64,000 nt of DNA from positions 62,682,001 through 62,746,000 of the forward strand of contig OZ024743.1 of assembly GCA_964016885.1 (NCBI GenBank), given 5' to 3'. Both the position numbers and the translations under genes were made by a program. The notes beneath the pieces were generated by a model. The model searched no databases, was not told where the DNA came from, and saw nothing but the letters and a program-made list of their open reading frames with translations. Position 1 is the stretch's first letter, and each line of letters opens with the position of its first letter. The stretch comes from Eledone cirrhosa. Lineage: Eukaryota. Of the stretch, positions 4,289 to 61,427 are shown piece by piece.

Positions 4289-4482
4289 ATAGGAAAATGT
4301 ATGACCCCGACGGCAGAGCTCAGGCCGTTTCGACAGTTATTTCAGTCCAGAAATAGCCGTCGAAACGCCTTGAGCTCTGCCGTCGAGGTCATACATTTTC
4401 CTATTACCCACTCTACTACCCTAAGTATTGAGTACTCTGGTGCGCTATGGTCCATTTGGTTCCTTACCACAACTCCCTCGTT
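4289..4482 (+). mobile_element. Family-C fold-back insertion in (TA)n (arms 4289-4343 / 4350-4404 plus tail)
   Basis: 55-bp inverted arms; contains HHR 3' half GAAA CGGC..GAGCTC..GCCG TC; homolog at 30992-31185. Confidence 0.75.
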
Positions 4483-5192
4483 ATATATATATATATATAT
4501 ATATATATATAATAAGTTGACGGGACTAGCATAAGTTCCCTGCTAGAACCGGTTGCATCTCAGCGTACTCAATATATATAAGCCATGTGTGAGTGTCTGT
4601 GGTCCACGTGTATAATGTTTGTATATATTAAGCCTATCCATATGAGTGTGTTCTTCTGCATACAAAATAGCATTGGACGCGAGTTACCTCATCCTACTTG
4701 TCCATTTCCCAAAGTTTGTTTAGGTAAGGTTGACAAGTACATTTTCACCAGACCTTTAATGTCAACCGTACGAATAACAACAGCACTGACTTATACAGAC
4801 AGACAAACATAGATGTAGAATATGAAATAGTACAAGAGTTAGCTAACTATATAGTTGATCCTCCGCCAGTTTCGTCGACGAATGTTCTAGTTCGGGGTTC
4901 TCAAAGTGGGCGCTACTTCCCCCTCCTCCGAAGGGGAGCGGTGGGGTGGAGATGATATAATAATATATCAAATATCAAATGATATATATATATATAAATA
5001 TAGTAAAATAAAAAATATATATTTATTTATACATAGTATATATATTATTTATTATATATTATTTACAATGGGGGGGGGGCATAAGTCTGAGAACCTCTTT
5101 TCTACTTGTTCGCCCAATGGAAGAATTTGCTCGTGAAATTAGCGTGTAAATGGCTGAGCACTCCACAGACTCGTGTACTTTTAACGTAATTT

Positions 5193-5373
5193 AATTGTTT
5201 CTACTTTAGGCACAAGGCCAGCAATTATCCCAGTGCATTACTGGTACTTTATTTTATCGACCCCGTAAGGATGAAAGGCAAAGTCAACCTCGGCGGGATT
5301 TGAACTCAGATCGTAAAGGGACGTAACTATGCTGGAAAGCATGGCGTCCGACCCTCTACCGATACTGCCAATC
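5193..5373 (-). mobile_element. tRNA-derived SINE family (copies ~6400-6510, 7990-8066, 29740-29815, 30145-30327, 35460-35620, 45400-45660)
   Basis: Repeated GAGTTCAAATCCCGCCGAGGTTGACTTTGCCTTTCATCC...GTACCAGTAATGCACTGGG...GTAGAAACAATT. Confidence 0.75.
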
Positions 5374-5869
5374 CACGTAATTTAATGTGACACAGTGAGT
5401 GATAAGGCTGGCCCTTTCAATTACAGATACGGTCCATCAGGCGGGTTTCCTAAAAGTTTCCGTCTATCCAGTTTCACTAGTGAGCAGAGGCGTAACTAGG
5501 GTATGGCAAGCATGGCACATGCCATGGGCACCACAAAGGGGGCGGGAAACTCTTTCAGATGTATGATCTGTCTCTGATTATCATGGGTGAGAACACTATG
5601 GAGGCTGGATTATTAAACCATTTATATAAATTATTAGACCCATAGGTAAAAATACAGTGCTAAACAGGGGCGCAATTTCACTGCTTGCTATTGGCGCTAT
5701 TTTCCTTAGTTTGCCTCTCTTTGTGAGGCTAATTTCTTAACCGTTCGGCTATGTCCACACTATATAATTAGCAATATACTGTAATGTACTGCAGAATATA
5801 TGTATGTACAGAGTTTAGCCAACATTGTATGTATCGATAAACGTAAATACATTGTCTTTAAATACAACA

Positions 5870-6222
5870 TACTCTCGGGTCCCAATAATGGGGGGGGGGG
5901 GGATAAGCGGGGTTGTTAGAATAAACGGTAATTTTTCTAGGTTGTCTCCATTGGCTTTTTAAAAGCCAGAATCAGTGGTTTAGTTTACATATTGAGACCC
6001 CCAACCCATCCTATTTATTTTATAACGTATGGATTTTCTAGTTTTTTTAATATCTGAAGAAAATTAATTGTTGCAGCAATGCAACCATTTAAAATAAAAT
6101 TTCGCCGGAGATAGATTAGTAAAATTTAATAAGCGGGGTAGAGGGGTTGGAATATGAGCGGGGAGTGGGGTCCTGAAAAATAATAGGGGGAGGGGGGGGG
6201 CATTATTCGAGACCCGAAAGTA
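5870..6222. mobile_element. TA-flanked MITE (second full copy 17018-17427; partials ~4020-4082, ~8440-8480)
   Basis: TIRs TACTCTCGGGTC.C.AATAAT / ATTATTCGAGACCCGA.AGTA; shared internal sequence. Confidence 0.75.
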
Positions 6223-58236: not shown

Positions 58237-58913
58237 TATATTAATAAACTAAGAGACAAATATATCCAATTAAAATGTTGAGTTAAAAACTCTCAAAATT
58301 GTAGGGGATTATTGAGAGTTTTTAACTCAACATTTTATGATATATATATATATATTTTAGTTGATTCTATTGACTGATGAATAGCTTATGTTAATTTTAA
58401 CCCTTCTGTTGAGAACTCTATTCGATCTCTGATGTTTTTGCATTCTTGCAAAAATATACACAACTGAATTTATTCGCCTGATATAGGGGCTGCCTCTCTT
58501 GCCGATCCCCACGTGGAGTCAGCAATAGTCAGTCCCTGTATTAACATTGAACTAAAACCTGTTGAGAAAGTGGCTTCCTTGTTCAATCATCTTACCAGAA
58601 GCCTAACATTATTTAAGTAAGCGGACGGTGATTTAGGAGCCGCAGAAACCCAAATAGTGGATTTTACCAACCTTCCAGGGGTCCGGGTAAATTTTCAATA
58701 CCCGAATTACTTTATAGTTTTTTTGGCTATGCGAATGATTGTTTAACCATCGCCTCAGTGTGTTTGGCCTTTAACGTTTGTTATAGCTCTGGTTCATCTG
58801 AATCATTGAGCACTTGCCTCACATCTCGGAGGTTGTTTTTCGTTATTTCGTGGGCCGAAATGCGAATCTCGATAATTTATGTTTATATATATATATATAT
58901 ATATATATATATA

Positions 58914-59735
58914 TAGTTTTAATATAGATGAGATTCGACAGGATTAGAACTGTTTCATTCTTTAGAAATCATCAGGAATCTGGGTATCAAAAAATAAATA
59001 CTTTGAGTGCTCTGCAACCTTTTATACAGCTGTCATTCTTCATATGTATCACATGTCCATACCAATGCTATATATATATATATATATATATATATATATA
59101 TACGTTATTCCGGGCTGAATCGAAGGTAACCACAGTAAGTAAGGTACTCAATACATAGCAGAGTATAAAAGTTTTAATATAGATGAGATTCTACAGGACT
59201 AGAACTGTTTCATTCTTTAAAAATCATCAGGAATCTGGGTATCAAAAAATAAATATGGTATTTATAGGTCTCTTCAGGTGGTAGGAGAGGGTGGGATGGG
59301 TAGAGGTCATTGGTTGATAGAAAAGGAAATTCATTAAAAGCTAATTCTTTAAAGCTATAATTTATATTTAGAGTAACAAAGGCAGAAAGAGAAACTTAAA
59401 AATAAGGAGTGGCACCCCACTCTGAACTTGTTTATAGAATCCTTTCTGCCTTTGCCTTTCACCCTCTCCTACCACCTGAAGAGACCTATAAATACCATAT
59501 TTATTTTTTGATACCCAGATTCCTGATGATTTCTAAAGAATGAAACAGTTCTAGTCCTGTAGAATCTCATCTATATTAAAACTTTTATACTCTGCTATGT
59601 ATTGAGTACCTTACTTACTGTGGTTACCTCCGATTCAGCCCGGAATAACGTATATATATATATATAGCATTGGTATGGACATGTGATACATATGAAGAAT
59701 GACAGCTGTATAAAAGGTTGCAGAGCACTCAAAGT
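58914..59735. mobile_element. Complex PLE family-B insertion with three HHRs (58931-58981 -, 59186-59236 -, 59517-59567 +) and a ~280-bp inverted repeat
   Basis: AGATTC CTGATGA TTTC TAAA GAAT GAAA CAG TTCTAGTC CTG TA GAATCT; arms 59000-59293 / 59460-59735. Confidence 0.82.
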
Positions 59736-60989
59736 TGATGGAAGTAGGGAGACCCAGGAAGACCTGGGACGAAGTGATAAAAGCTGACCTTGCCAAAATG
59801 TGCCTCTCAAAGGCAACGACACAGGACCAAGATCTCTGGTGTTACGCATTAATACAGAAGACCCAAATTCCCACACATACAGATTGTAGCTGAAGCATAC
59901 CATATTTCCCGGTGCCAAAGACACTTCGCCCTCGAGGATGCACCCTAATTTTGACAACCAAAATTTAAAAAAAAATATAATAAACAACCTTCAGCCTCCA
60001 GGATGCATGGTAGATTTTTGAGACTTAATTTAGAAAAAAAAATAGCGTCTTCGATGCTGGGAAATACAGTATGTGTAGCATGCACCATCCTGTCCCTCCC
60101 CACCCACTCCCATGAGGATAAGCTGAAGTATACATCCAGCAAAGCCTCCAGCCTACACTGTAAAGTGGTCCTGATGGCCACATGACAAAAAGCGCCCAGC
60201 CCACACTGTAAAGTGGTCATGTAGATGTCACAACAAAAAGCACCCAGCACACACTGTAAATGTGGTTGGCATTAGGAAGTGCATCCAGCCATAGAAACCA
60301 AGCCAAAATAAGCCCTGTGTGAGCGAAACACACTCCTCCAACCAGATCTCTTACAAAGGGACAGCCCGCCCTGCCAATGCTAGCGTGGAAAATGGACGTT
60401 AAATGATGATGATGATATATATCCTTGCAGATCAGCCAAAACTTCATTGAGATTTTACTAATTGATTGATTGAAGAATGTATGTATGTGATTGTGTGTGT
60501 ATGTATGTATATATATATACAACCTCTGTATATATGTATATATACATGGCTTAGTGGTTAGAGCATTGGTCTTGCAATCGAAAGGTTGTGAGTTCAATTC
60601 TCAGACCGGGTTACAGTCAGTAGGCATCTCTAACAAAACACACCCCCGTCCCACCACCCCCACCCCACCCACACCGCCCCTTTCAATGTAAAGTTATGTT
60701 GGTGCCACAACATCCAGGCCGAAACAAATGAGATCGTGTAGGTGTCACGACAAAAAAAAACACACAGTCCACGCTGTAATGTGGCCGTGTAGGCAACACG
60801 GTAAAAACCTCCCAGTCTCACACTGTAAATGTGGTTGGTGTTAGGAAGGGCATCCAGCTGTAGAAAACCCGCCAGACAGTCCTATGCGAGCAAGACAACC
60901 ACTCTTGCCTCAAGTGGGAAAACTCCCGTCCAAACCCATGCAAGCGTGGAACATGGACGTTAAACGATGATGATGATGATGATATATAT

Positions 60990-61427
60990 ATACATTGATA
61001 TTAAATAAATGGAAACTATATTTATAAAACCATATTTATTCTATTATATATATTTCAGAGTACCAAAATTTTGGTACGCTATCATCAGATAAAATACAGA
61101 ATGCTTTATAAATATTTGACATAACCAAGGATAATATACCTTAACAGTTCAAGTTATCCCTGGAAAGTTCAAGTTAACGGTTCAAGTTATCCCTTGGTTA
61201 TGTCAAATATTTATAAAGCATTCTGTATTTTATCTGATGATAGCGTACCAAAATTTTGGTACCCTTGAAATATATATAATAGAATAAATATGGTTTTATA
61301 AATATAGTTTCCATTTATTTAATATCAATGTATATTATACTCCAAAAATCTGTTGAGTGCTCTAAATCAGTTATAAACATTTATATTTGTTGAATTACCA
61401 ACAAATTTAATATCCCTTCTGCTTATT
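60990..61427. mobile_element. PLE family-A fold-back insertion with two inverted HHRs (61037-61096 -, 61226-61286 +)
   Basis: Arms ~60988-61130 / 61192-61335; spacer has three GTTCAAGTTA repeats. Confidence 0.82.

Follow-up and report, generated by a model that had tools for sequence, protein, structure and literature searches.

How are hairpins built inside microsatellites? The question is raised by a stretch of 64,000 nt from Eledone cirrhosa (OZ024743.1, positions 62,682,001-62,746,000, forward strand; GCA_964016885.1), hereafter the window, which has a GC content of 36% and abundant (TA)n, and in which inserts made of two head-to-head arms, one of them bearing an extra tail of 48-138 nt, lie in (TA)n tracts. 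An original prediction, made from the sequence alone, attributed these inserts to several families of Penelope-like elements (PLEs) that prime at (TA)n, whereupon the complementary DNA (cDNA) would fold back, prime its own second strand and rejoin the target by TA microhomology (snap-back). The inserts are copies of six abundant PLE families, A-F; however, the junctions show that fold-back copying of the tail-bearing arm does not usually account for the tail-less arm, and snap-back is not the general mechanism. It is probable that each arm is instead a cDNA of its own, likely copied from a single RNA and running off at its 5' end, and that the two cDNAs are then end-joined, i.e., that the inserts arise by twin priming.

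Arm geometry and the snap-back model

Arm ends are given as d, the number of bases counted from the tail-less end site, with negative values upstream. All predicted inserts were found by self-comparison followed by sequence inspection, and the head-to-head arms with a tail on one of them are present throughout. The claim of one shared geometry holds in this respect and fails in others: the 37800 insert has (TATG)n instead of (TA)n as its right flank, the 50501 insert has (AG)n on its left, and at 58914 the short arm is separated by 85 nt of flank and (TA)n from a tail-plus-tail hairpin. Turn points vary from copy to copy.

A fold-back copy holds only first-strand content, so that under snap-back the tail-less arm must lie inside the tail-bearing arm; containment of the copied arm in the first strand, a loop of at least 3 nt and primer microhomology were taken as the signs of snap-back. 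Of the window inserts, those at 25584, 30992, 37800, 50501 and 60990 have a tail-less arm that exceeds its partner in length, and those at 4289, 29390 and 42372 a tail-bearing arm that does so; snap-back geometry is broken in five of nine examples. The term "short arm" is thus a misnomer, as the tail-less arm, counted inward, is often the longer. Further examples of each family were drawn from the first exact-motif matches on one contig, which biases them towards young copies. For family C, 104 pairs were scored (40 consecutive matches, 62 in or around the first motif matches, and both copies from the window, with two complex rows excluded and one upstream variant absent from the reference panel), among which the greater reach belongs to the tail-less arm in 43 and to the tail-bearing arm in 45, both reaching equally far in 16. 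Snap-back geometry was called in 6 of these pairs, two of them (L340 and L362) being chance matches and the window insert at 4289 being under-called through a mismatch, and the mirror geometry was called in 17. The family B sample comprises 17 of 21 pairs, the other four having been scored tail-less twice, at least two of them with a diverged tail; here the tail-less arm reaches further in 9, the tail-bearing arm in 6 and neither in 2, with one case of snap-back geometry.

This symmetry of reach speaks against fold-back self-priming, as do the junctions themselves, which in the 104 family C pairs are mostly blunt (22), overlapping by 1-2 nt (30) or filled with inserted bases (33), the remaining 19 having longer overlaps. 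In 8 of 64 family C pairs the tail-bearing arm stops inside the tail, which means that the two arms share no sequence; genome-wide, 551 junctions join a tail fragment straight to an arm, and such joints also occur in short-read contigs. Tail-less arms far longer than their partners are found in families F and D (e.g., 319 versus 39, 445 versus 137 and 729 versus 70 nt). A tail-less end may even lack a tail-bearing partner altogether, as in the full-length family B copy L404 and in the 3.9 kb family A copy at 21620-25510, whose tail-less 3' end lies at (TA)24.

That the hairpins are an assembly artefact from fold-back reads, one of the outcomes by which the original prediction would have fallen, is scarcely credible. 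No reads spanning a whole window insert were recovered, but short-read contigs and raw reads contain the hairpin joints, one contig spanning 4090-4308 with 0 differences and leading from unique flank into the short arm. The variation in turn points argues in the same direction, as do the thousands of copies with diverged arms and exact tail asymmetry.

Fixed ends, the RNA 5' end and the pairing of arms

Every family has two fixed end sites, each at a TA motif and each against (TA)n. Among family C tail-less arms, 63 of 75 end at TTCC+TAT (d=+3), and 55 of 77 tail-bearing arms end at d=+80; a (TA)3 run lies within 6 nt of the end in 67 of 75 and 73 of 77, respectively, compared with 2.6-4.5% of random positions. 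Families A, B, D, E and F show the same fixed-end behavior. The predicted fixed end of the tail-less arm, its TA microhomology and the targeting of (TA)n are thereby borne out, and the same microhomology is present at the tail end. Where the RNA runs on into the open reading frame (ORF), in copies L085 and L404, the sequence continues with TA beyond the tail end, hence both fixed ends share TA with the target. The fixed tail-less end is better read as a second start site of reverse transcription, comparable to what is described for the Poseidon element PAc of the green anole, which cuts both target strands, extends them and begins synthesis at two sites delimiting the tail (Frangieh et al., 2024; PMC11167929).

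The (TA)n flanks might in part be made during priming by a telomerase-like activity of the reverse transcriptase (RT) rather than pre-exist, which could be added to any model. The template carries TA at both start sites, a few ends lack a TA run (L044, L124), and a search for empty paralogous sites over 101 inserts yielded one clean case. However, that case, the empty paralog (38684-38748) of a family F insert, contains (TA)n bearing the same TTTA marker, clusters of different families are found in shared tracts, and a (TA)n preference is described for Hydra-clade PLEs (PMC8557442), so that this addition is quite improbable. The same family F insert shows a candidate 16 nt target duplication, as a single case. 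Read mapping recovered no empty allele, the reads being dominated by other copies.

In families B and C the upstream arm ends also cluster, namely at d=-50 to -62 in C and at d=-49 to -58 in young B. At d=-57 both families have an A, which follows a TATA-like box by about 30 nt and lies in a context that we take to be initiator-like. By eye, the base that follows was classified in 100 listed arms extending to d=-57: 71 have the templated base, 8 have one that fits a known variant, 19 have an extra G and 2 an extra A, which is an excess of extra G (p=2e-4); the extra G is found on both arms in 7 of 50 loci, and a G beyond d=-57 is found in none of 15 read-through copies. The pile-up of ends, the TATA-like box and the extra G together suggest that the arms of B and C end by run-off at a capped RNA 5' end about 57 nt upstream. 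In the full-length copy L404 the element starts at about d=-61. Collision between the trailing and the leading RT is not claimed as the cause of arm ends, because per-base truncation looked similar on both arms.

The pairing of arms bears on the number of templates. Short family C pairs comprise 15,532 mixed pairs (tail-bearing plus tail-less), 166 tail-plus-tail pairs and at most 173 tail-less-plus-tail-less pairs, a count that includes some non-family matches, so that 98% are mixed; mixed pairs likewise make up 7/8 in family A, 5/6 in B, 11/12 in F, 6/7 in E and 4/4 in D. Over 40 nt, arms differ by 2.1 bases within one insert and by 5.6 between inserts, and at least two diagnostic base differences separate the arms in 8 of 40 mixed pairs as against 21 of 45 tail-plus-tail pairs (p=0.012). 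Pairing and arm concordance, as read from these sequences, favor one RNA template. If each subunit of an asymmetric dimer copied an RNA of its own into one cDNA and all else proceeded as in twin priming, independent arm lengths would follow without strand displacement, and arms would be alike anyway if subfamilies were active at different times; some tail-plus-tail pairs do combine different subfamilies, so two-template events may occur. With a free choice of site, though, about half of the pairs should be like pairs, whereas about 2% are, rare variants common to both arms are seen in mixed pairs (L346, L348), and arms agree more closely in mixed than in tail-plus-tail pairs. Two templates are therefore rather unlikely as the rule. 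As a separate observation, the near-equal numbers of tail-plus-tail and tail-less-plus-tail-less pairs could be explained by recombination between inserts, which would yield the two types as reciprocal products.

Twin priming on one RNA would proceed as follows. The RT/GIY-YIG protein, for which a dimer is predicted in PMC11167929, would cut both strands of the TA tract, by analogy with that study. Each target 3' end would then pair over 2-5 nt of TA with one of the fixed sites, the tail end or the tail start, which lie 48-138 nt apart; the microhomology at these sites is seen in the sequence, and priming there is presumed from it. Both cDNAs would extend toward the RNA 5' end, which means that one must displace the other. 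In B and C, most copying would take place on the 5' pseudo-long terminal repeat (pLTR) and run off at the capped end about 57 nt upstream, giving hairpins of about 190 nt. Host end joining would presumably link the two cDNA ends, leaving the junctions observed, and solo arms would reflect the loss of one cDNA. Independent arm lengths and junctions with short microhomology or end joining were found, as twin priming requires, and they point to it with a single template as the presumed substrate. There may be an even chance that twin priming on one RNA is the default mode of PLE insertion and that the 15,000-plus short family C hairpins are joined pairs of strong-stop cDNAs. If so, strong-stop cDNAs copied from the first 140 nt of a capped transcript would be joined in head-to-head orientation, one mechanism would give rise to the tail, the inverted pLTR and the (TA)n bias, and long tail-bearing copies may come from a cDNA jump to the 3' pLTR, as in LTR elements.

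Several points weigh against this account. The first test of the extra G was weak (6/7 versus 11/40, with T and C templated), and no start-site cluster of arm ends was shown in families A, E, F and D. A stricter divergence cut-off gave no significant difference between tail-plus-tail and mixed pairs (10/45 versus 4/40, p=0.15), and two RNAs on an asymmetric dimer would produce the same pairing. Target duplications were not generally detected in family C (3 of 98, against a shuffled mean of 0.67 and maximum of 3), and the starts used in vitro by the anole element are not homologous to the target (PMC11167929). Three window inserts (4289, 29390 and 42372) fit snap-back; at 4289 the loop lies on the tail-bearing arm, which is compatible with snap-back. 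The duplication at 59000-59735 looks like a real fold-back, likely copied through the tail into the flank. Palindrome centers can be remodelled after insertion, which could yield asymmetry in either direction.

Snap-back self-priming followed by such repair, which would scramble the identity of the longer arm, would account for the three inserts, with the apparent fold-back at 59000-59735 also in its favor, explains mixed pairing and shared variants together, and has on its side the published reading of junction palindromes (PMC3846280). It would, however, require one-sided deletions that spare the full reach of the tail-less arm to d=-51 to -58, would not produce kb-long or full-length tail-less arms without a partner, and does not predict that an extra base just past d=-57 is present in both arms, with further bases separating them; moreover, the only clear fold-back ran past the fixed TA site. 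Self-priming with later remodelling is accordingly unlikely as the general route.

Family assignment and comparison with known elements

In the host genome of 3.0 Gb, exact motif matches number 57,359 for family C (window inserts 4289 and 30992), 31,535 for B (58914 and 50501), 28,723 for F (42372), 21,454 for A (37800 and 60990), 1,988 for E (29390) and 1,121 for D (25584), with 0 matches to the reversed control in each case. The proteins were identified by motifs and tblastn, and a Pfam search of them gave no PLE match. Longer copies carry a single ORF with an RT as well as a C-terminal GIY-YIG domain, as in endonuclease-positive PLEs (786 amino acids in family C, 758 in the family B copy L404); in family A the two domains lie in pieces within window 21620-25510, and pieces were also found for E, F and D-linked copies. 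Direct pLTRs are present in L085 and L404, and inverted pairs also occur. The original prediction of several PLE families is thus supported by the motifs of six.

Families A, B, C, D and E carry the motifs of the Hydra clade and match it as defined in PMC8557442. RWR and DKT are present in the RT region of A, B and C (the region was not recovered for D and E), as are the CxCX5C linker and, around the conserved E and N, CxxC...CxH; the endonuclease-side motifs are also present in D and E. As to the CCHH motif, absent from the Hydra-clade endonuclease, there is between the GIY and YIG positions one cysteine in A, C, D and E, and there are two, eight residues apart, in B. Family F carries Neptune-clade motifs, i.e., a CX2-5CxxC linker (CIDKKCITC) and CCHH cysteines, with the pair CTEGQC within GIY-YIG. 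Membership in Naiad/Chlamys was ruled out for A, B, C, E and F, in which GIY-YIG is C-terminal and not N-terminal. The tails of families B and C are otherwise unlike, yet have a 10 nt motif in common, a candidate protein-binding site.

The prediction that most inserts carry hammerhead ribozymes holds in part. Complete type I motifs were found with a custom descriptor in families A (37800 and 60990), B (58914) and F (42372), with 12 matches in the window as against 0-3 in shuffles; the core's 5' half is missing from the family C copies of the window, families D and E yielded no motif, and the proposed check against Rfam returned no hammerhead match. Full family C copies have a U3/A8 variant predicted to fold as a three-way junction. 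Hammerhead cleavage, with sites at d=-17 (C) and about d=-13 (B), was rejected as the source of the RNA 5' end, because arms cross the cleavage sites. Minimal hammerheads of PLEs are likewise of type I and located in pLTRs, include the U3/A8 variant and occur in opposite-strand pairs 100-700 bp apart (Cervera and de la Pena, 2014; PMC4209133); compared with these, the motifs described here are known from sequence, and the arm ends do not coincide with the cleavage site.

For Hydra-clade PLEs, an inverted copy, a tail and a (TA)n bias have been described, the mechanism being called open (Craig et al., 2021; PMC8557442). Families A-E resemble them in RWK-like and DKT motifs (recovered in A-C), in CxCX5C and CxxC...CxH motifs, in the C-terminal GIY-YIG, in an apparent lack of CCHH (though family B has two cysteines), in insertion at (TA)n, in the 5'-truncated inverted copy beside the insertion and in the tail on one end. 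They differ in scale, as the clade is represented there by few families, generally below 3 kb, whereas here five families have tens of thousands of motif matches and full copies of 4-6 kb. The tail measures 30-40 nt there and 48-138 nt here, and it is ascribed to endonuclease resolution, unlike in the present reading (PMC8557442). Family F shares with Neptune-clade PLEs the CX4CxxC linker, two GIY-YIG cysteines, the hammerhead and a microsatellite target (PMC8557442); its clade is assigned from motifs, and no pile-up of arm ends was seen in it.

Poseidon PAc is similar in its two internal RT starts bounding the tail, in the position of the tail at the ORF start and in the use of uncleaved hammerhead RNA; its starts are not homologous to the target, whereas both starts carry TA microhomology here, and the accessible part of the study connects the two starts neither to the two arms of one insert nor to 5' run-off (PMC11167929). 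The Penelope elements of Adineta vaga share the head-to-head inverted pLTR, the optional tail, the junction palindromes and a TATA box with initiator in the pLTR (Arkhipova et al., 2013; PMC3846280). The inverted pLTRs were read there as self-priming on an antisense template, and the junction statistics presented here argue against self-priming being the rule. Recent Penelope insertions in an octopus were reported without such anatomy, as far as the accessible text of that report goes (PMC13282606).

Individually, the components of twin priming are known; the self-priming idea is in print, but no such junction test of it was found, and a literature search, with most subscription journals outside its coverage, turned up neither twin priming nor strong-stop in any PLE paper. 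In L1 twin priming, the second target end starts synthesis at an internal site of the same RNA, and microhomology joins the resulting inversion. It is occasional there, with a variable internal site and cDNAs that barely overlap, whereas here it would be usual, with a fixed site and overlapping cDNAs. The tens of thousands of young junctions in the Eledone cirrhosa genome can separate the competing models, and they predict a transcription start to the base. They also link the two start sites found in vitro (PMC11167929) to the two arms of one insert. Furthermore, PLEs seed more than 15,000 short palindromes in TA tracts, which are a likely source of rearrangement and double-stranded RNA.

Features of the window and minor observations

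The arms and further PLE copies of the window are listed in Table 1.

Table 1. PLE arms and associated features, in window coordinates.
Feature	Position	Strand	Remarks
Family C tail-less arm	4289..4343	-	starts at fixed site against (TA)6
Family C tail-bearing arm	4337..4481	+	tail 4402-4481, then (TA)15; includes the loop
Near full-length family A Hydra-type PLE	21620..25510	-	RWR, DKT, YRDD, CxCX5C, GIY-YIG pieces 23179-25379
Family D tail-less arm	25584..25749	-	reaches d=-162; includes the loop
Family D tail-bearing arm	25747..25948	+	reaches d=-154
Family A solo tail-bearing arm with hammerhead	29046..29242	-	
Family E tail-bearing arm	29391..29578	-	138 nt tail; reaches d=-49
Family E tail-less arm	29577..29607	+	d=-30; geometry fits snap-back
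Family C tail-bearing arm	30995..31127	-	reaches d=-52
Family C tail-less arm	31127..31185	+	reaches d=-55
Family A tail-bearing arm with hammerhead	37800..38006	-	reaches d=-115
Family A tail-less arm with hammerhead	38015..38182	+	reaches d=-174; (TATG)n next
Empty paralogous site of family F insert	38684..38748	.	(TA)n interrupted by TTTA
Family F (Neptune-type) tail-bearing arm	42381..43720	-	GIY-YIG ORF end 42818-43720; hammerhead near 42614
Family F tail-less arm	43721..44014	+	flanks show candidate 16 nt target duplication; hammerhead near 43833
Family B tail-less arm	50502..50564	-	reaches d=-67
Family B tail-bearing arm	50554..50650	+	reaches d=-21 only
Family A solo tail-less arm with hammerhead	55839..55969	+	between two (TA)n
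Family B tail-less arm	58913..59000	-	adjoins no long arm
Inverted duplication: 85 nt flank + (TA)n + family B tail arm	59000..59735	.	59000-59293 versus 59460-59735; likely a real fold-back
Family A tail-less arm with hammerhead	60993..61167	-	reaches d=-173
Family A tail-bearing arm with hammerhead	61192..61427	+	reaches d=-136; about 24 nt duplicated insert at junction

A further Hydra-type PLE fragment lies between two (TA)n tracts at 26463-27870 (GIY-YIG at 27157-27861, minus strand), and a Hydra-type RT fragment at 61492-62367 on the plus strand begins at a TA/TG tract. Window 55311-57032 holds a 445 nt inverted repeat (96%) around a small palindrome at (TA)11 (55729-55808) and the family A solo arm, and more short palindromes are found at 58271-58337, adjoining (TA)n, and at 31620-31666. 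The segments 38432-39112 and 42112-44313 are duplicates of each other (93-98%) on either side of an RT ORF resembling that of long interspersed nuclear elements at about 40020-41860, which by eye appears RTE-like. A dispersed repeat, likely a short interspersed nuclear element, is headed by a tRNA-like Rfam match at 60547-60604.

Outside the window, family D forms ORF-less tandem arrays with units of 630-760 nt, some with a terminal inverted run (L174-L182, C1:43.918-43.924 Mb; C1:132.609-132.623 Mb); these arrays are retrozyme-like, and a canonical hammerhead was not found in them. One family B fragment is repeated along C1, with the same flanks each time (L107, L111, L112, L113, L119 and L386), which places it inside a larger duplicated unit.

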